Positions 583-10,493 are shown, counted from the stretch's first letter. The stretch is DNA of 64,000 nt from Escherichia coli (GCF_024223415.1 NZ_CP100500.1); one strand, 5' to 3'. Notes: a model not told the origin generated them from the sequence alone. Numbers and translations are program-made.

Positions 583-1806
583 ATGGCTAAAAACAAAGGT
601 ATCTGTCGGAATAAAAAATGCAGCAATCCTGTTTCAGAATTTGATGAGGCAAATGCCCTGAGGTTATGTGATGATCATTATCAGTTATGGAAACGAAATA
701 AAGAGAACCGTCGGGTCAGGAATATTTGTCGTATAATCAGTAAATATGACAAAAGTCTGGACCGGGAGATATTTGACAGAGTAATAGATGCTGCAAGAAA
801 TCAAACGGGAAAGAGAATTGTTGAGGACGCAAAAATATTACATCAATTGCGCAATTCAAAGCAAGTAAGAAAAAGTCTTCATAATGGAGTACTCCGGTCA
901 CGGGAATGGCTCAATACACAGGAGTTACTGAGAAGAAAAAATATATCTGTTACAGGTGACTCATTTAAATCTTACATAAAGGATATTGTCAGATTATATT
1001 GCTATAAGTTTCTCTACAGCAGAGAATATCTTAATGAAAACGCATGCAAAAAACAATATCAGAGAGTTATTAACCCCAGAGAATTTAATGTTCCGATACT
1101 TCAACTTGAAGTTGCATGGATCAATAATAATTGCCGTTCAAGTGATTCAAGCTCTGATATTATCATCCTTCCCAGGATGATAAGAAGAATGGTTGTATTT
1201 AATGATACGAAGATAAATAAACAATTAGAGGAAATGTTGGGGGGGATAGCACGAAAAAAAGTCGCAGTAAGGAATAAAGGCGGTCTCTATACCAGAATAA
1301 AAAAAGAAAATGATTTTCGTTCTATGGATAGATTTATGGTGGAAATCGAAAATATCATAAGACCTGAAATATTTCCGACATCAATTTACCCGCCTTTTTC
1401 ACTTTCATTTATCGAGAGAGAATTGCCACTACTGAATCTGGCGCACTCACAGTACAAAAGAGCAATAAGTAAAAAAGTGGCGAATTCAATTTTTTATACT
1501 TTGCGAAAAACTCACGTGGCATTATGGCTGCATCTTGAAATGTTTGCTCTTGTGGCATTCATCAAACTGTATACAGGAAAAGGGTTTGAATTCATGAAAA
1601 ACATGTGTGTATTTATAGATTATGATAAAGGGATAATAAAATCCACGCATGAAGAACTGCTGAGTGAAATTAAGTGTAACATTCAGTTGAATTTAAAGGT
1701 GAATTCTGATAATTTTCCTGAATTAATAGAAGTATACAATTCATGCTTTAGTAAAAATATATTGTTGTATGATGTTCAGGATGATGGTTTTAAATGGTGT
1801 TTATGA
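583..1806 (+). CDS. hypothetical protein, 407 aa, AT-rich orphan; N-terminal Cys/His cluster (CRNKKCSNP...CDDH)
   Basis: Long uninterrupted ORF in a markedly AT-rich segment, divergent from the GTPase gene; no recognisable catalytic motif. Confidence 0.5.
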   Translation: MAKNKGICRNKKCSNPVSEFDEANALRLCDDHYQLWKRNKENRRVRNICRIISKYDKSLDREIFDRVIDAARNQTGKRIVEDAKILHQLRNSKQVRKSLHNGVLRSREWLNTQELLRRKNISVTGDSFKSYIKDIVRLYCYKFLYSREYLNENACKKQYQRVINPREFNVPILQLEVAWINNNCRSSDSSSDIIILPRMIRRMVVFNDTKINKQLEEMLGGIARKKVAVRNKGGLYTRIKKENDFRSMDRFMVEIENIIRPEIFPTSIYPPFSLSFIERELPLLNLAHSQYKRAISKKVANSIFYTLRKTHVALWLHLEMFALVAFIKLYTGKGFEFMKNMCVFIDYDKGIIKSTHEELLSEIKCNIQLNLKVNSDNFPELIEVYNSCFSKNILLYDVQDDGFKWCL

Positions 1807-3389
1807 TGTGAAAATATTAAATTTATATTACATTTTAATTATCGACAAAAAACACATAAAGAAATCTAAAGGGAATGAGCGTCAAATGAGCTGATATAGC
1901 GCCAGTTTGGTATGGTCATGTGATTTGATGATTAAAGCTTACGGATAATAACACTCCTCTGTGAGCCATATAAATGAGCATGCCATAATCGTCAGTTCAG
2001 AGATAAAACTGACTGAATGATCTTATGTTATAGTAAGCAGTGTTTACCGGATACGATGACTTATCTCTCTCACATCATATGGATTCACTTTCATGGGGTA
2101 AAGCGATGGGACTACAGACGCTGATTATGATGGTTTGCTGTAAAGTTAGCACAAGTTTTTGCTGTACAGAATACGGAGTAAGAAAAATAATTCCAGAGTA
2201 AATCTGCTCTGCTTTTGAACAGAAAAGATTCATGCTTACCGTGAAAAACTGAAACCAACATTCAGTCTGCATGGATGTCTTAAGATGTTGAGAATGTCGG
2301 ATATGGTATTATATACACCTTTTCCATTAGGTCCTTTTATGTTTTCATTAAGTCGTTTTGTATGTATTCCTCCAGTGATTCATTAGTGCCTGTTTACGCA
2401 TTTACACACTTTTCCCATTAATCTCCTTTAAATGTGTTTCATTACGCATTGCTGTACACATTTTTGAACTGATACACATCCAAGTTAGTAAACCTGTCAG
2501 TTCTGATTTTACGTTAACTAAATCAGTTTAATGCTGCTGTAAAACAATCCTTCCTGTTTAAGCAATCAATCTGCTATTCGATTTTACTGATGTGACGTTT
2601 AACCTTTCCTGAGCTTTGGTTGTTTGTGGTTTTTGGTTTGTGTTTCGACGTTAAGCTGAGAAAAGTATCTTTACGCTAAATCAACCCGAACTTTCCTGAG
2701 GTGATCTGACGTTCTTTTCGATGTGCTTACGACGATTCTGTTAAACGACTTTCTGGATGTTTTGATAACAATCAGATTGAGGCATTAACGATTCCTGACG
2801 TTTTGCTTTTTCATGTAAGGTCATTGTTTTCGTCATGATGTGGTTTTTCTTCTTGCATTGCGAAAGTGTGATGATTGGTTTTGGTTTTTTGATTCAGATG
2901 AGATTTACGTTATCGATGGTTAATCGTTTTTATGGTGAGTAGTGAAACGTAACATTTTCGGGATGAGAAAATCGATTCTGATGGTGATGGGGATGATCGT
3001 GTTACGGCGTTATCTGTAAACAGGTTTTAAACGTGTCATTCGCATTCGTGATTGAGTTGTGTGATTAAGCTGTAGGTTTTGGCGTTGTTGTTGATTTGCA
3101 TTGCCAGGAAGCGTTCTGGTTGCGTTTCTGGTGTTTTGTTCGAATGTTCTGTGGATCCTTTTCCCTTCAGGCTTTTCTCGTCGTCCATGTCGTTTTTAAA
3201 TCCATTCATGCTGTTGTTGCGTGTTTTGCTGCTGTGTGCAGGATTATCTTTTCGTTCCGGGATGGTTTGTTCCGTTTCAATCACTCTTAATCAGAGAGTT
3301 GTAGCATTGCTTAATGACATGATGCCGTAAAGTTTTACCGCGGTGATTAATGATGTGAAGTCAATCCAAATCAACGGAGATCTCTCATC

Positions 3390-4121
3390 ATGAATCAACC
3401 AATACACAATGCTTACTGGTTATCCCGTTTTGACAGCCTTCTCGACAGTGCCCTGTCGCAGCACCGTGCCGTCTCGTTAATCCGGGTGGATTTACGTTTC
3501 CCTGAGTATATGCCTGTCACCATCATGGATCCCGATCCGGATTCAGCGGTGATTTCTCGTTTTTTCGAATCCCTGAAAGCCAAAATCCAGGCTTACCAGC
3601 GGAAAAAACGACGTGCCAACAAGCGTGTGCGTGCAACCACTCTGCGTTATTTCTGGTGTCGGGAGTTTGGCAAGGAAAAAGGCAGGAAACATTATCACGT
3701 GATATTGCTGCTCAACAAAGATACCTGGTGCTCGCCAGGGGATTTCAGCGAACCATCTTCGCTGGCGACGATGATCCTGGAGGCATGGTGCAGCGCCCTG
3801 CATCTTGAGGCCTGGCAGGGTAATGGACTGGTTCATTTTTCCAGGCGGACGCCTTTCCGTAAACCGACATCATCTGATGCTCGCCCTTCTTCCGATGATA
3901 CGCCTTTGTCGGGTGGATGTTCTGATACCAGGAAGGCTTCAGACAAAAAGCCGGGTGAAGCCGCTGTTCTCTGGATCAAGCGTGGTGATGTGGCAGCGAT
4001 GCAGAAAGCCCGGAAAAGAGCCCGTTATCTCGTGAAAAATCAAACGAAGCAGCATAATGGTTCCGGTCAACGTAATTATGGTTGCAGCCGTGGGCCGGGG
4101 CGTCTGCTGGATGGCAGGTGA
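3390..4121 (+). CDS. inovirus Gp2-family protein (YagK/YfjJ-like)
   Basis: 243 aa ORF MNQPIHNAYWLSRFDSLLDSAL...RVDLRFPEY...HYHVILLLNKD, pattern of YfjJ/YagK island proteins; preceded by conserved upstream motif. Confidence 0.65.
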   Translation: MNQPIHNAYWLSRFDSLLDSALSQHRAVSLIRVDLRFPEYMPVTIMDPDPDSAVISRFFESLKAKIQAYQRKKRRANKRVRATTLRYFWCREFGKEKGRKHYHVILLLNKDTWCSPGDFSEPSSLATMILEAWCSALHLEAWQGNGLVHFSRRTPFRKPTSSDARPSSDDTPLSGGCSDTRKASDKKPGEAAVLWIKRGDVAAMQKARKRARYLVKNQTKQHNGSGQRNYGCSRGPGRLLDGR

Positions 4122-4631
4122 AGTCTGTAAAACGGTATCCGGTGCCAGGGGGGGGATATCACGGTAAGGGCGTCAGCCAACGTCTTTCGCTCGTATTCTG
4201 ATAACCCGTCCTGAAGTCATGTATCTGCTTCCATTCTCATGTTCATATTTCTCTTACGCTTTCACTGTCTGTCATCGGAAGTACCGATTTATTTTGGTGC
4301 TGCGCACTTACGGCCATTCACGGAAGAGGATTGTGGTGAACAGTAGGAGTCTGGCTGCTGGCGAGGGAAGGTTCAGGACTGGTATGGGGTTTAGTGCTGG
4401 AGGATGACTTTGAATCCCGGATTGACCAGTGAGGGGGCAGTGAGAGGATGCTCTGGTGTAACAGGTCTGGATTACAAAATATAAAACCGGTTGTACACTC
4501 GTAACGGGTAAAAGGATACGGGCAATAACACGTGGTACCCGGTGAGACTGGCTCTTGTATCACATTACCGGGAATATTCTGGCAGGTGAAATGTTCTGAT
4601 AAGAATCATCCTGAGGGAGGATACAACGGAT

Positions 4632-5084
4632 ATGAACGTTATTGACAGCCGCATTCGTGATGTGAAATTTGGTGAAAATGTGAAAGTCGTCATGCCAGTA
4701 AACCTCTATGAATGTGAACTGGGGGATGATGTTTTTATCGGTCCCTTTGTGGAAATACAGAAGGGATGCATCATTGGCAACCGGAGCCGAATTCAGTCCC
4801 ACAGTTTCATCTGTGAGAACGTCATTTTAGGTGATGCCTGTTTCATCGGTCATGGCGTAACTTTTCCTAATGATCTGTTTAAGTGTGGTGGTCCCGATAC
4901 CTCTGCAGAAAGCTGGATACGCATCGTATTAGGTAACACTGTAACAGTGGGTAGTGGAGCGACCATTTTAACAACAGAAATTTGCAGTGGAGCTGTGATT
5001 GGTGCTGGTAGTGTGGTTACAAAGCCCGTGCTGGTAAAAGGCGTGTATGCGGGTAATCCGGCCAGACTTTTGAGAACGCTTTAA
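4632..5084 (+). CDS. hexapeptide-repeat (left-handed beta-helix) acyl/acetyltransferase
   Basis: 150 aa with repeated [LIV]-G-x-x-x-x hexapeptides (VFIGPFVEI, CIIGNRSRI, VILGDACFIGHGV, VLGNTVTVGSGATI, AVIGAGSVV). Confidence 0.7.
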   Translation: MNVIDSRIRDVKFGENVKVVMPVNLYECELGDDVFIGPFVEIQKGCIIGNRSRIQSHSFICENVILGDACFIGHGVTFPNDLFKCGGPDTSAESWIRIVLGNTVTVGSGATILTTEICSGAVIGAGSVVTKPVLVKGVYAGNPARLLRTL

Positions 5085-5335
5085 TTATTGAATCCAATAT
5101 TAAACCAGACAGACAGTAAACATAATACTGTTCCGGATATCGCTTGCCGCAGGAACCTCCTTAACATTCAGGAAAATAAAGCTTTTATTGCTGCTATGTA
5201 CCATAAGAGACAGAAGTAATTGATTTACCAGTATTACACCTGTTGAAGCTATGGTTATTCACCTTTTATTTTTTGAGCAGCGTATTTATACTTCCCGGAG
5301 CATTGTTTAAATATAATCGCCCGGGATTGATTCGT

Positions 5336-6241
5336 ATGGCTCTTGAACAGGAAATCGCAAACCTTGTAAACGAGTTTGTCGCGGCTGGTCGTCCATCCTG
5401 TCGTGACCAGACCTTTGATGAACGCCGTGCCGGATATATCGCAAGTACTGCTCTGGCCGGCGATACAGAAACCCGCGTAAACATCAGTGATGTGATTATT
5501 GACGATGTTTTATTGCGCATATTTTCGCCTTTAAACGATGATGGGGTGTTATCCGCAATTGTCTATTATCATGGTGGCTGTTTTGTCAGTGGTGGTTTTG
5601 TAACCCATGATAATCAGTTGCGACAGCTTGCTTTCCTGAGCGGTTGTCGTGTCATTGCTGTACAATATCGATTAACGCCGGAACATATTTATCCTGCGGC
5701 ACATGACGATGCTGAACATGCCGCTAATATTGTGTGGCAACACGCAGAAATGTTGAAAGTTGATCGCAACAGAATAACGTTAATGGGGGATAGCGCTGGG
5801 GGACATCTTGCACTGATAACAGCACTGCGGGTTAAAAACATCGGTCAGTGGTTACCGCGAAAATTAATACTTATTTACCCTATGCTGGATGCCACAGCAT
5901 CATGTGATAGTTACAAATTAAACGGTAGTGACTATGTGCTGACAGCAGACACGTTTCTTAGTGGTTATGAGGCTTATTTTTCCGGTCAGGATTTAGAACA
6001 TCCGGAAGTGAGTCCATTATTCAGGAATGATTTCAATGGGTTACCACCTGTTCATGTCATCACAGCGGAATATGACCCATTACGCGATGAAGGTGAGGAA
6101 CTGTTTTCCCGTATGATTCAACAAGGAGTAAAGTGTACCGCCCAGCGTTATCTCGGTGTCATTCACGGTTTTTTCCAGCTTGGCGGCATTAGCCAGACAG
6201 CCCGTAATCTGATGCAGGATATTTGTGGGATTGTTAAATAA
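5336..6241 (+). CDS. alpha/beta-hydrolase esterase/lipase (family IV, HSL-like)
   Basis: HGGC/HGGG oxyanion motif (YYHGGCF) and GDSAGG nucleophile elbow; start placed at MALEQE, the 5243 start adds a hydrophobic extension and is uncertain. Confidence 0.7.
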   Translation: MALEQEIANLVNEFVAAGRPSCRDQTFDERRAGYIASTALAGDTETRVNISDVIIDDVLLRIFSPLNDDGVLSAIVYYHGGCFVSGGFVTHDNQLRQLAFLSGCRVIAVQYRLTPEHIYPAAHDDAEHAANIVWQHAEMLKVDRNRITLMGDSAGGHLALITALRVKNIGQWLPRKLILIYPMLDATASCDSYKLNGSDYVLTADTFLSGYEAYFSGQDLEHPEVSPLFRNDFNGLPPVHVITAEYDPLRDEGEELFSRMIQQGVKCTAQRYLGVIHGFFQLGGISQTARNLMQDICGIVK

Positions 6242-6487
6242 TCACGTAACAAGCAGCTACAGGTAAATTAGCTGAGCATGCATCCATCATTTGTCGCTGC
6301 GATGCCAGACTTCCGGATGCTCATATGTTGTTTTACTTTTGTCAGCATAAATGCTGCGTCGGGACTGGTGAATGGAGATAAGCCATTTTATTATCGACGT
6401 CAGAGAACATACTCACAATGTCGGTATGTTTCTGAAATTAAGGGTAAGTTTTGCGCTGATTACAGTATGCGAAGGAGATCTGGCACA

Positions 6488-8080
6488 ATGAATCCCGCTT
6501 ATATGCAATCCCCCCATTTCCCGGCAGATTTAACATACAGATTATTTCCTCGTAAGCTTGCGTATCTCATTGACGACTTATATGAAAGTACCCAACTTCC
6601 GCTGGATCTCATTTTTAATACTGTACTGGCAACGCTCTCACTCTCCTGTCAGTCATTGGTTGACGTTGTTCATCCTCACACCAACATGCCGGAACCCTGC
6701 TCACTTTATCTGTTGACAATCGCAGAGCCAGGCGCGGGAAAAACAACGATAAACAGACTGGTGATGAACCCCTGTTACGACTTTGCCGATCGACTCATTC
6801 AACAATACGAAGAGAGAAACAAAGATTATAAAACTGAACTACAGATCTGGAATACCCGACAGAAAGCTCTTTCTGCCAGTTTAAGAAAGGCTATTAACCG
6901 GGGGTATCCGGGAGAACAGGAAGAAGAGGCGCTGCGTAATCACGAAAGAAATAAACCGACACGTCCGGTTCGACCGAATTTTATCTATGAAGATGTTTCA
7001 CTTAAAGCGCTTGTGGAAGGACTCAACGAGCATCCGGAGGCGGGAGTTATTTCTGATGAAGCGGTAACTTTTTTCAGAAGCTATCTGAAAAATAGTCCTG
7101 GTCTGTTGAATAAAGCATGGAGTGGACAACCGTTTGATTTTGGACGGGCTGACGAGAAATATCATATCACTCCACGCCTGACATTTTCGCTAATGTCCCA
7201 ACCGGATGTTTTTACGGCTTATATAAATAAAAATGATGTACTGGCCAGGGGAAGCGGATTTCTTTCCCGGTTTCTGTTCAGTCAGGTTGTAAGTTCTTCC
7301 TGGATACGTGATTATACGAGAGGTGAGTTCAGAACAATACCAACCCTGGAGAATTTTCATAAAAAGATTAACGGATTTCTGTTAAGCCATAACATTAATT
7401 CCCCCGGCATGAGCACCGAAAGGAAGACATTAAAACTTGCGAAGAAAGCGTTGGGGGAGTGGCAGGAAAACCAGAGTAAGATTGAAAGCAAAGCGCTTGC
7501 AGGAGGGGAGTGGGAACACATCAGAGATATTGTTCTGAAAGCAGGTTCTAATATACTGAGGATAGCGGGTTTATTCACCTTCTATGGCAATAAAGATGCT
7601 GAGGAAATTGAATCAATTGCGCTTTTTAACGCCATGCATCTCATGGACTGGTATCTGGAGGAGGCAAGCGCAATATTTTATCCCATGTCTGAGCGACGCC
7701 AGTTTGAGCAGGATGCCTGTGAACTGTATGCATGGATTATGACCCGAATCAGGCAGAATAACTGGTGTGCTATCAGGAAAACAGATATTGAAAGATATGG
7801 TCCCAATCGACTGAGAAGAGCAGAAAAGCTTACACCTGTACTCAATCAGTTAATTGCTCAGAATTATTTCTGTATCATCAAAATGCGCTCGCATCAGGCA
7901 CTTTATGTTTCTGTTCGTAACAATAATGGTTACCTCCTTCCTTTCGGCACAATGTCTTACGAACCGTTTGATGTTGTACCCTCCTTGTATAGTCATAATG
8001 CGAAAATATATCCCGTTAATATTCCACCGGAATTAATCCAGTCATTTGCGTTACCTTTTTCAGCCTATAACTTATTCTGA
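6488..8080 (+). CDS. DUF3987-type protein (YfjI-like, primase C-terminal-like) with P-loop-like AEPGAGKTT
   Basis: ORF with IAEPGAGKTT motif; family recognised by similarity to YfjI of CP4-57-type islands; start at MNPAYMQ chosen over upstream 6278 start. Confidence 0.6.
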   Translation: MNPAYMQSPHFPADLTYRLFPRKLAYLIDDLYESTQLPLDLIFNTVLATLSLSCQSLVDVVHPHTNMPEPCSLYLLTIAEPGAGKTTINRLVMNPCYDFADRLIQQYEERNKDYKTELQIWNTRQKALSASLRKAINRGYPGEQEEEALRNHERNKPTRPVRPNFIYEDVSLKALVEGLNEHPEAGVISDEAVTFFRSYLKNSPGLLNKAWSGQPFDFGRADEKYHITPRLTFSLMSQPDVFTAYINKNDVLARGSGFLSRFLFSQVVSSSWIRDYTRGEFRTIPTLENFHKKINGFLLSHNINSPGMSTERKTLKLAKKALGEWQENQSKIESKALAGGEWEHIRDIVLKAGSNILRIAGLFTFYGNKDAEEIESIALFNAMHLMDWYLEEASAIFYPMSERRQFEQDACELYAWIMTRIRQNNWCAIRKTDIERYGPNRLRRAEKLTPVLNQLIAQNYFCIIKMRSHQALYVSVRNNNGYLLPFGTMSYEPFDVVPSLYSHNAKIYPVNIPPELIQSFALPFSAYNLF

Positions 8081-8860
8081 AATAAACCAACACAGATGAA
8101 ACGAAAAAAAACAACATTCATTCGAAGGTTGGTGGTAAGGAGTTTGCATATCCTGCATCTGTGCAAATATTCACCAGTTATGGGGCGCGAACGAAAATTT
8201 CTCTGAAAAAATCGCTACGGTAGCAACAGTAGCAGCACATGCACCATGTCTGTTATTTGATTTTGTTTTCATAATGACCTGTTGTCAAAGCTGATTGAAT
8301 ACAGGAGTGTGCGCACTGGTGGAAGAGTGGCTTTCGTTTTTGGTTATTCGAAAGAAAATCGAAATATTGTTTTTAACATAGCTGAAGCTAATCATATAAC
8401 CATATTTTTTGAGTTTTTATATATAACTTTGTTTGATTCTTGTCGTAATGAGTGCTGGCGTATATGACGATGTCGCTCTCTTTCTGAATAACGAAAGGTT
8501 ATCAGTCTTTTACTGACAAGAGATGCTGTTCAGGTTTCAATGGGAGATTGAAGAAAAACGATTTGATATTTTCCGTGAGAGAATGTCTTGTCAGGTTCAT
8601 ATTCATAACGGATAATTTCTTATTTTCACTCATCAGACATGGATAATTTTAATTTAGGTTTATTACTATAATTAGTATCTGTTCCTTTATTTTTATCCAT
8701 CTATCCCTTTATTTTTCATCTATCTATCCTTTTATTATTAGTATCTGTATTTTTATTATTGGCATCTGTCTATTTATTTTTATCATTCTCTCCTCTCTGT
8801 CTTTACTCTCATTGCTCTTACTCTCATTCTGTTATTTCTACTCGTGTTATCGTGTTCACT

Positions 8861-8940
8861 CTATCACTCTATCACTCTATCACTCTATCACTCTATCACT
8901 CTATCACTCTATCACTCTATCACTCTATCACTCTATCACT
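8861..8940. repeat. octanucleotide microsatellite (CTATCACT) x10 perfect copies, with degenerate CT-rich flanks 8681-8950
   Basis: Counted directly: 10 head-to-tail copies of ctatcact from 8861 to 8940, 11th copy degenerate (ctatccat). Confidence 0.95.
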
Positions 8941-9689
8941 CTATCCATCTCTCAATCATAACGATTGTCACTCATATGATACTCAGCCATGTTATTTTCT
9001 ACTGCTCTGCTGAGCTTATCTGTCTGTTCTCATCTTCAGTGAAACAGCACCTGATTTTACTCTTATCCATCATGAACTGTCTTTGTTCAACGATGATGGT
9101 ATGTCTGATATGTGTTAACCATTTTGATGGGTATCGTTGATTATCCGATGGTTAAGCTTCGATAAGGTTATCCATAGAACAGTGTGGGGTAAGCAACATG
9201 ATCCCTGATGATATTTGTTCCGTGTTGTCTTGTTGTTTAAGCGACAGGAAATATGTCAATGGCATGTTTTATTCTGCTGCCGTGAGCCATGCATGTTCTG
9301 AAGAACAGATTGAATGAGCGCATGTGAGTTTATTACGTTGGCCTTGTACACGTTTTTTTAGAACCACTGAGAGCAAGTTTGTAGTTTATGATGCTATTGG
9401 TCGTAATATGTTTCTTGAACTTTTGATCGTGGGTTTTTATCTCGTATTTTTCAGCATTTCTCGGTGTTGTATTGCGTCGATATTTTCTTTATTCCCGTTA
9501 ATATCATCTCGTCAGTGTCCATTCCTTTCATCACAATGCGTATCGTTAATAATCTGTTGTATCCATCCGCCTACAGCATGCCTGATAAATACCGTCTGTC
9601 AGTTATTACCGTTTTAGATCTGATTATGAGCGAAGGTATTCATTCGCTGACAGAACTTAAAACGTCATTAACTTACAGGAGTTATCAGC

Positions 9690-10259
9690 ATGCCTCAGTC
9701 TTACACACCAGACTGGTTTTTTACCGCCTTACTTGACCATCACATCGATCAAATGATGGCTCGCTATTCCTGTCTGCGGGCCTTACGGATGGATTTCTTC
9801 TACAGGAAAGAGACGCCTGATTTCTTACAACCTGATCACCGCTGGCTTGAATTGCAGTTGCGTATGCTGCTGGACCAGGTTGAACGGTTTGAAAATATGG
9901 TTGGTTTCTTCTGGGTGATTGAATGGACGGCTGATCATGGTTTTCATGCGCATGTGGTTTTCTGGATCGATCGTCAGAGGGTGAAAAAATATATCCCTTT
10001 GCGGAGCGGATAACCGAATGCTGGCGGGCTATTACGTATAACTGTGGTTCGGCGCACCGCTGTACATACCAGCCGCATTATGCATACAACATCAACATTC
10101 CCGTGCGCCACAACGATCCTGAAAGCATCGATAATATTCGCGGTGCCCTGCATTATCTGGCGAAAGAAGAGCAAAAAGACGGACTGTGTGCATACGGCTG
10201 CAGCGAAGTGCCTGAACGTCCTGCTGCAGGGCGACCACGCAAGCTTCACGTCTGAAGCT
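9690..10259 (+). pseudogene. inovirus Gp2-family gene, frameshifted
   Basis: N-terminal 107 aa ORF (…FWVIEWTADHGFHAHVVFWIDRQ…) stops at 10013; family-like continuation (ITYNCGSAHRCTYQPHYAYNINIPV...ALHYLAKEEQ) runs in a different frame to 10259. Confidence 0.55.
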
Positions 10260-10493
10260 TAAACCCTGAACCTCCGCACCTGGAAACAAGCCATCGGTAA
10301 AAACTTACCGCATTGCTTAATGATGTGAACCGAAGTCAACGGAGTTCATTCACCCTGAATGTTCTTTCCTGATATTCCCGCTCAGCGTCGGTTCTTCACC
10401 TGTTCCATCAACCTCATCCGCAGCCTGTAACCCGTCAGCCCATCCATCCCCGGGCAGGACGCGTTGTGGGCTGCGCATAACGGAGCATATCCT

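Follow-up and report, generated by a model that had tools for sequence, protein, structure and literature searches.

Introduction

Replicons that encode HUH-type Rep proteins, such as those with circovirus or geminivirus intergenic regions or with a double-strand origin of the pMV158 type, have a palindrome and a conserved run directly upstream of the Rep-like gene; Rep binds such sites and represses its own gene. A similar arrangement is described here in a 64,000-nucleotide stretch of the Escherichia coli genome NZ_CP100500.1 (assembly GCF_024223415.1); the whole stretch is called the window, and all positions are counted from its first letter unless another locus is named. Two related elements lie in it in the same orientation. 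The first, S1, is directly upstream of Gp2-243, a gene of the YagK/YfjJ (inovirus Gp2) family, and the second, S2, is at the head of a unit formed by an open reading frame (ORF) of 191 codons (hyp-191) and an alpA gene. Unlike the sites of HUH-Rep replicons, the element is chromosomal and island-borne, and it is duplicated in front of an apparently catalytically degenerate paralogue. Moreover, the spacer adjoining its palindrome is variable, and no nick-site consensus or iterons are apparent in it.

Other described systems share different features with the pair. Plasmid initiator genes under leader-peptide or translational-coupling control (tap-repA of R1, repY-repZ of IncI/B) resemble Gp2-243 in that the stop of a short upstream ORF falls on the start codon of the initiator-like gene (ATGA), and the left end of IS200 forms a hairpin that sequesters the ribosome-binding site, just as the hairpin predicted for S1 covers the Shine-Dalgarno (SD) sequence and the AUG. 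In contrast to these systems, S1 and S2 gave no sign of an antisense RNA, a terminator or conserved pairing, the peptide of the S1 upstream ORF is unconserved, and S2 has no adjacent ORF. The nutL/nutR sites of lambda, the putL/putR sites of HK022 and the AlpA-binding elements (ABEs) of Pseudomonas aeruginosa also consist of two same-orientation copies, each starting a transcription unit, and also combine a hairpin or palindrome with a linear conserved box. No match of S1 or S2 to any of the three was found in sequence or structure, nor were terminators demonstrated downstream of them. The P. aeruginosa elements lie in two promoters (PMC7969949, PMC9371919), and the site itself, GGGACG-N5-GGTA, is located between -35 and -10 (PMC7969949). 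The DNA-contacting residues of that AlpA are numbered R128-H142 (PMC9371919); it is larger than the 77-residue AlpA of the E. coli type (Phage_AlpA-type) that is encoded here. GGGACG-N5-GGTA is absent from S1 and S2. A loading site like those of AlpA or phage Q-type proteins, in which the binding element is followed by a -10-like pause element directly after the transcription start, is not indicated, because no promoter was found that could hold it, the ABE motif is missing and the regulator is the 77-residue Phage_AlpA-type protein; the P. aeruginosa antitermination site was likewise rejected as a candidate, as it involves a different, larger protein and a different motif.

We read S1 and S2, tentatively and with a probability of about 0.45, as a sequence-specific cis-regulatory site common to the Gp2-243 and hyp-191-alpA units. 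The element belongs to a familiar class, that of conserved 5' control elements of mobile-element genes, and is not a new kind of system. It is undescribed, being present neither in Rfam nor in the annotation of 5,426 genomes nor in the searchable literature, where neither the core sequence nor yfjJ/yagK led to any relevant full text.

Similarity and extent of the two elements

Local alignment of 3200-3400 with 10200-10500 matched S1 (3327-3395) to S2 (10297-10360) at ~80% identity with one 5-nt indel. The score of this alignment was 47; 500 shuffles gave a mean of 16.5, a standard deviation of 2.2 and a maximum of 25. The same pairs were also recovered by a repeat search of the window. A first-pass annotation had noted the resemblance of the two upstream regions, and these results bear it out; the homology is far above chance. 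The blocks TTAATGATGTGAA and TCAACGGAG are common to both copies, and each copy holds a palindrome, as had been remarked (Table 1). An nhmmer profile found S1 and S2 only, with no third copy in the 64 kb. Matches to TGATGTGAA at 1804 and 4658 were dismissed as chance; one falls where a gene ends, and the other is intragenic.

The boundaries differ somewhat from those first proposed. Column identity among seven S1 loci rises from 0.56-0.81 to 0.97-0.99 at ~3320. The 14-mer GCATTGCTTAATGA does occur exactly at both 3304 and 10310, but at 3304 it is peculiar to the S1 variant of this window. The box has diverged in other S1 variants, which read GCATTGCTCAAT or GGCGTTGCTCAATGG, and it therefore lies outside the constrained core. 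For S2, the two types of left flank converge at TCCGC(T/A)CCTG, i.e. at 10272, and BLAST matches begin at 10273, ~15 nt after the stop codon of a pseudogene, Gp2-188. The element was said to adjoin two start codons. This holds for S1, where GGAG precedes the ATG at 3390, but not for S2, which ends at ~10356, 137 nt upstream of the ATG at 10494.

Selection on the elements

The variation of S2 was sampled in a metagenome scan with a search pattern that lay wholly to the left of the core, a choice made to avoid ascertainment bias. The 98 copies obtained represented 65 distinct haplotypes of 820 nt. Among these, only one of the 28 core sites (10317-10344) was variable, with a nucleotide diversity (pi) of 0.016. 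The spacer at 10310-10316 was variable at 6/7 sites (pi 0.259), and the leader at 10358-10481 at 75/124 (pi 0.153). Within hyp-191, variation was found at 126 of the 191 third codon positions (pi 0.169) and at 52 of the 191 second positions (pi 0.046), and the gene's own translation-initiation region (TIR) varied at 3/15 sites. The S2 core is more constrained than non-synonymous sites and must therefore be functional, though no ORF starts there; it is under very strong purifying selection.

These figures bear on the idea that S2 is a functionless, decaying remnant of the 5' end of a lost Gp2 gene, with a merely historical similarity to S1. A CTG does occupy the ancestral ATG position in S2, and the similarity to S1 ends ~6 nt later. 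However, the core is variable at 1/28 sites, compared to 60-66% in the adjacent leader and in third codon positions (binomial estimate under neutrality, ~4e-12), and it surpasses even the second codon positions. A functionless relic is strongly disfavored by this test, and we consider it very improbable.

For S1, 21 haplotypes were compared. The inner 12-mer of the palindrome, GTAAAGTTTTAC, was invariant and the core was almost wholly kept, and the outer stem positions of the S1 "hairpin" varied without compensation. The proteins encoded downstream of the two elements are only 17-24% identical, compared to ~80% for the elements themselves; this difference implies either constraint or relatively recent copying, and not divergence of the elements together with their genes. 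The features that S1 and S2 share and that are specific to E. coli include the left arm of the palindrome.

Layout in related genera

Gp2-243 has relatives at 34-43% identity in Brenneria, Providencia, Morganellaceae and several unassigned contigs, and these other members of its subfamily lie directly upstream of an alpA gene. BLAST detects no similarity between their upstream regions and S1 or S2, but the regions are collinear in layout, which can be written TTT[TA]AC-N13/14-RTRTGRAM-N24-ATG with a GGAG ~10 nt before the start codon. The exact pattern had 14 matches in 330 kb of sequence, all of them at that upstream position. S1 matches it exactly, and S2 matches with two substitutions in block 1 and with CTG in place of ATG (CTG or TTA in other S2 haplotypes). 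Matches were also found in comparison loci L014, L016, L017, L019, L020, L021 and L052. The last of these served as a held-out test and has one mismatch; three further held-out loci (L053-L055) had no match.

The second block contains an ATG or GTG that is in frame with the main ATG and 10 codons upstream of it in L014, L052 and L016, and is for that reason probably the ancestral start. In S1, GTG3355 sits at the same place, where the 5-nt insertion causes it to open an upstream ORF of 12 codons. The collinear layout, together with the CTG at the place of the main ATG, leads to the conclusion that S1 and S2 are two copies of the 5' region of this subfamily, and that S2 has lost its ORF. Judged from the sequence comparison, then, they are paralogous copies of the 5' control region of one Gp2 subfamily, that of the "Gp2-alpA" island modules of Enterobacterales. 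A duplicated coding N-terminus had been mentioned as a trivial source of the similarity. The comparison across genera suggests that an ancestral start and ~10 ancestral codons are indeed included, but neither E. coli copy now codes in that frame.

An element serving the entire gene family, as was proposed at first, is not supported by the searches. Nothing like it was found upstream of Gp2-188, of yfjJ or yagK of K-12, or of ~20 yfjJ/yagK-type genes on viral contigs, and the cross-genus layout is absent from yfjJ/yagK-type loci. The suggestion to look upstream of yfjJ/yagK homologues was productive only for the closest subfamily, which keeps a diverged, collinear version in other Enterobacterales. 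Genes of the yagK type have a different conserved hairpin (TACGG…CCGTA, e.g. TACGGTCTGCTATAGACCGTA) ~25-30 nt before the ATG; it was seen upstream of K-12 yagK (L004, 6950-7000) and in L025, L026, L032 and L039. A hairpin directly upstream of the start seems to be a repeated feature of the Gp2 family, seen in several of its branches.

Proteins encoded next to the elements

Gp2-243 has rolling-circle replication motifs I-III, including HUH and Yxx(K), and matches HUH-nuclease-like folds, the best of which are origin-binding nickase domains. By motifs I-III and Rep fold, the gene adjacent to S1 thus encodes an HUH endonuclease. The product of hyp-191 had also been assigned to the Gp2 family, but it matches nothing in Pfam (including PF11726, the YagK/YfjJ family), NCBIfam or PHROG, and is only a remote relative. 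It is linked to Gp2 by BLASTP (E=0.001) and by hhalign (probability 91%, E=1e-6, 149 columns). Its HYH motif is replaced by EYH and the tyrosine of motif III by phenylalanine, and because of these changes it is probably catalytically inactive. We take hyp-191 to be, probably, a remote and inactive paralogue of Gp2. The claim of a shared non-coding cis element 5' of two related genes thus stands as to the element, which is shared and selected; the second gene is related to the first at the level of profile-profile comparison only. All 62 database clusters of hyp-191 are from E. coli, and the gene holds the position that an intact Gp2 gene has upstream of alpA in other genera.

A possible regulatory site

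Under our preferred reading, S1 would be the working copy, furnishing the ribosome-binding site of Gp2-243 and a short upstream ORF whose stop codon overlaps the main ATG, and S2 would be an ORF-less copy that selection has retained at the head of the hyp-191-alpA unit. The palindrome and the invariant core of 28-33 nt would together make up a putative recognition site for a module-encoded factor. The Gp2 protein and its inactive paralogue hyp-191 are the candidate binders, AlpA being less likely, and binding would couple the expression of Gp2-243 to that of hyp-191-alpA. A protein of the module is favored by analogy with Rep autoregulation at hairpin-plus-repeat sites and because the signal is in the primary sequence. 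The lack of a consensus RNA fold, the long contiguous invariant run and the retention of GTAAAGTTTTAC but not of the outer stem argue for recognition of sequence, not of RNA structure. An operator, which was among the functions first suggested, would be a plausible role.

Four points weigh against such a site. First, the entire S1-Gp2-243 block is 93-99% conserved among strains, so that the conservation of S1 says little about selection. Second, the 5-nt difference in the spacing of TTAATGATGTGAA and TCAACGGAG would place them on opposite faces of duplex DNA, an awkward arrangement for one complex bound to DNA and one that a single-stranded nucleic acid would accommodate better. Third, the constant orientation and the SD and start-codon signals are equally compatible with a role at the RNA level. 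Fourth, neither consensus scans nor a position weight matrix (PWM) disclosed a promoter on which an operator could act.

The second and third points raise the possibility that the element acts as RNA, in a leader or an intercistronic region. In S1, UGAUUAAUGAUG would pair with CAUCAUGAAUCA and sequester the SD sequence and the AUG; control might also be exerted through translation of the upstream ORF (which ends in AUGA) or by a trans-acting RNA-binding factor or small RNA on the single-stranded core. S2 would have the same role within a polycistronic Gp2-hyp-191-alpA transcript. The predicted fold of 3320-3400 (-21.9 kcal/mol, z = -3.0; 1/200 shuffles as stable) encloses both the SD sequence and the AUG, the upstream ORF that begins with GTG ends in the ATGA overlap with the main start, and a spacing difference of 5 nt between sub-blocks would be harmless in single-stranded RNA. 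The orientation is fixed, and the element is inside a likely transcript; S2 is probably transcribed from upstream, because no promoter was found within it. On the other hand, S2 does not form a fold equivalent to that of S1, RNAalifold found 0 conserved pairs in 10 sequences across genera, and changes in the outer stems are uncompensated in the hairpins of both copies. Nor is the upstream-ORF peptide conserved, and roughly every second S2 copy reads GTG-AAC-TGA because of the one polymorphic site in the core. Rfam had no match at gathering score anywhere in the window, and the five weak matches at E<=5 over 1800-11500 were not at S1 or S2. With only S1 folding notably and its stem changes uncompensated, a structured cis-regulatory leader RNA is not indicated; the leader RNA of the first-pass annotation found no conserved fold to support it. 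An RNA-level role of some kind is nonetheless a serious rival, if less likely than our preferred reading.

That annotation had also offered a promoter. S1 and S2 could be promoters, possibly activator-dependent, for Gp2-243 and for hyp-191-alpA, a reading that has some attractions: in the 366-nt intergenic region, where one would look for a promoter, strong conservation is limited to S2 and the TIR of hyp-191 itself, a weak candidate (TTGCTT-N15-TAAAGT) is present in S1, and related genera have a -10-like TATTTT or TAATTT directly before the TTAC block (read by eye). However, a scan for the sigma-70 consensus (-35/-10, 16-18 nt spacer, -11A, -7T) gave 0 sites in 3000-3500 and in 10150-10600. 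The best scores from our own PWM were 5.7 and 6.6 bits at non-homologous positions, the best S2 candidate being outside the core, and no consistent promoter was evident on either strand. The "-10" of S2 that aligns with that of S1 lacks the -7 T and has no -35 at any allowed spacing, and the 5-nt indel prevents a shared bipartite geometry across the core. Promoters are accordingly improbable. No intrinsic terminator (a GC-rich hairpin with a T-run behind it) was found at S1 or S2; the palindromes are A/T-rich and have no following T-run on either strand.

Several other candidates were rejected. Sites for sigma-E, sigma-28, sigma-54, CRP, IHF and Fur, the RfaH ops element, the LexA box and the P2 Ogr site (TGT-N12-ACA) were judged by eye, and none fits both copies. 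There is no shared ORF on either strand, the 5-nt indel breaking the common frame, and a mini-ORF (ATG-ATG-TGA) lacks a conserved SD sequence in S2. Immunity of the P4 type by CI RNA (seqA/seqB/seqC) was set aside, as the window has no reverse-complement copy of the core. Short likenesses to 16S rRNA (GUGAAGUC) and to origin sequences of f1 or phiX are consistent with chance and were not relied on.

S2 heads an alpA (excision/regulation) unit in islands of a family to which pap-fimbrial and sit-transporter pathogenicity islands belong, and such an island is present in about one third of sequenced E. coli. The 28 nt of non-coding core, more conserved than the surrounding proteins, point to a control point for expression of island genes, and possibly also for excision or replication, that is recorded in no annotation and in no RNA or DNA motif library. 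The ligand of the core would give a handle on the switching of "Gp2-AlpA" modules and on the role of the HUH-like YagK/YfjJ proteins. Were the element only an ordinary autoregulated leader, the interest would be local.

Possible sites for an HUH nuclease

The HUH character of Gp2-243 also suggests that S1 and S2 may be recognition or nick sites (an origin/terminator, or binding sites) for this endonuclease; as direct repeats around the gene, they would permit rolling-circle initiation and termination, or strand transfer, within the island. Gp2-243 has the requisite HUH and Yxx(K) motifs and the fold matches to origin-binding nickases. The direct repeats flank it, with starts ~855 nt apart, in 24 of the 38 linked pairs, in the order S1-Gp2-243-S2-hyp-191-alpA; the remaining pairs are separated by 4-10 kb. 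Each copy has a palindrome beside a long invariant run, and module junctions and 4-10 kb of variable cargo occur directly to the left of S2. The core can be read, post hoc, as (G/C)A(N)NN repeated every 5 nt, and the S1/S2 indel would be one unit of this series.

Relaxase and Rep sites are usually conserved next to the palindrome; at S2, by contrast, this spacer is the most variable part. As a nick-site hairpin the palindrome gives a mixed picture, its inner part being invariant among S1 haplotypes and its outer stem not. There is no sign that S1-Gp2-S2 moves independently; all loci have homologous flanks beyond S1. The corresponding positions in related genera form an ordinary translation start and are probably coding, and ~70% of S2 copies follow Gp2-188 and not Gp2-243 (which precedes ~27%). 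We therefore hold nick or recognition sites to be unlikely. The stronger proposal, that S1 and S2 are paired initiation/termination or strand-transfer sites that bracket Gp2-243 for the HUH nuclease of the island, with capture or exchange of DNA to the left of S2, seems quite unlikely; were it correct, a rolling-circle-type cassette system would reside inside E. coli pathogenicity islands.

Distribution

Among 5426 complete E. coli genomes, 1876 had S2, at 2497 places, and 1894 had S1; about one third of these genomes carry both. No feature is annotated under any of the S2 matches listed, and at the S1 matches the overlap with annotation is confined to the beginning of the Gp2 gene. When 100,044 species, with one genome each, were scanned for the exact pattern, the scan returned one Enterobacteriaceae metagenome-assembled genome and one chance match in a Chryseobacterium ORF. 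Phages gave 0 matches, plasmids only five E. coli records, and a search of viral contigs with a single protein gave nothing. As far as these sequence searches extend, the element is restricted to Escherichia and to a single branch of the Gp2 family, and none was seen outside Escherichia-like genomes.

Genomic setting

The window represents an E. coli genomic island. Positions 9600-11400 are 99.9% identical to strain GF60, and 3000-4200 are 98.4% identical to strain E41. The features are collected in Table 1.

Table 1. Positions of S1, S2 and neighboring features (window numbering, except where a comparison locus is named)
Feature	Position	Strand	Remarks
Unassigned ORF, 407 aa	583-1806		"hypothetical" in strain E41
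AT-rich non-coding DNA, 1.5 kb			between the 407-aa ORF and S1
Extra GCATTGCTTAATGA box	3304-3317	+	partial internal repeat of 3340-3353; exact match to 10310-10323
S1	3320-3389	+	directly upstream of Gp2-243; homologous to S2
S1 palindrome GCCGTAAAGTTTTACCGC	3324-3341	not applicable	inner 12-mer GTAAAGTTTTAC at 3327-3338
S1 core TTAATGATGTGAAGTCAATCCAAATCAACGGAG	3347-3379	+	ends in SD GGAG (3376-3379); 5 nt longer than S2 core
Short upstream ORF, GTG + 11 codons	3355-3393	+	TGA overlaps main ATG (ATGA)
Gp2-243, YagK/YfjJ (inovirus Gp2) family gene	3390-4121	+	HUH Rep-like
Cargo: acyltransferase, alpha/beta hydrolase, YfjI-type helicase	helicase 6278-8080		after Gp2-243
Repeat-rich, AT-rich non-coding gap, 1.6 kb	8080-9690		between YfjI-type helicase gene and Gp2-188 pseudogene
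Gp2-188 pseudogene, 188 aa	9690-10257	+	directly upstream of S2
S2, whole conserved module	10272-10356	+	from TCCGCACCTGGAAACA to fossil translation-start region
S2 palindrome CGGTAAAAACTTACCG	10295-10310	not applicable	6-bp arms, 4-nt center
Variable spacer	10311-10316	+	between S2 palindrome and core
S2 invariant core TTAATGATGTGAAC[C/T]GAAGTCAACGGAG	10317-10344	+	28 nt
CTG, fossil start codon	10355-10357	+	24 nt after block 2, at the place of the subfamily's main ATG
Leader with indels, poorly conserved	10358-10493	+	hairpin 10419-10476; hyp-191 own SD 10482-10485
hyp-191, 191-aa ORF	10494-11069	+	
AlpA-family excisionase/regulator gene	11134-11367	+	last gene of the unit headed by S2
IS insertion region, L001 (GF60)	3455-4770 of L001		
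IS insertion region, L002	4100-6740 of L002		
IS insertion region, L008	3290-4530 of L008		

The last gene of the S2-headed unit was identified from a PHROG match to excisionase/transcriptional regulators (2e-9) and from the AlpA-family annotation of its counterpart in GF60. Compared to E41, in which Gp2-243 and S2 are only 128 nt apart, the window has ~6.05 kb inserted (~4222-10274) that holds the acyltransferase, the alpha/beta hydrolase, the YfjI helicase and Gp2-188. In other contigs, 4-10 kb of differing length were found at the same place, which suggests a variable cargo site directly to the left of S2. The frameshift in Gp2-188 is due to a 1-nt deletion in an A-run (9978-9983, at ~9983) relative to the GF60 copy, which is intact.

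The leader between S2 and hyp-191 folds at -41.5 kcal/mol (z -2.1), a value that includes the strong hairpin located directly before the hyp-191 SD sequence. As read from the alignment, this hairpin is not kept in other haplotypes, CFT073-type sequences among them. The window and L013 lack ~24 nt of leader that other haplotypes have.

At the left of the window, the 407-aa ORF had no match in Pfam, PHROG or NCBIfam; it occupies a place where an integrase might be expected but is not an integrase. The DNA that follows, upstream of S1 (1810-3300), comprises 1.5 kb without a credible ORF, at 33-43% GC and with a strong T-over-A skew that reaches -0.49, and similar unannotated gaps of 1-1.7 kb lie upstream of Gp2 genes in other strains (L002, L006, L007 and L008). 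In the gap after the helicase gene, 11 perfect tandem copies of TCACTCTA occupy 8856-8945, and repeats of 21-23 nt are found at 8676-8786; the layout is like that of an iteron-type replication origin placed after a helicase/primase gene. Finally, several strains (L001, L002 and L008) have insertion sequences (IS3, IS66, IS2) near S1 or in the stretch from S2 to hyp-191, and S1 and S2 are themselves intact there.

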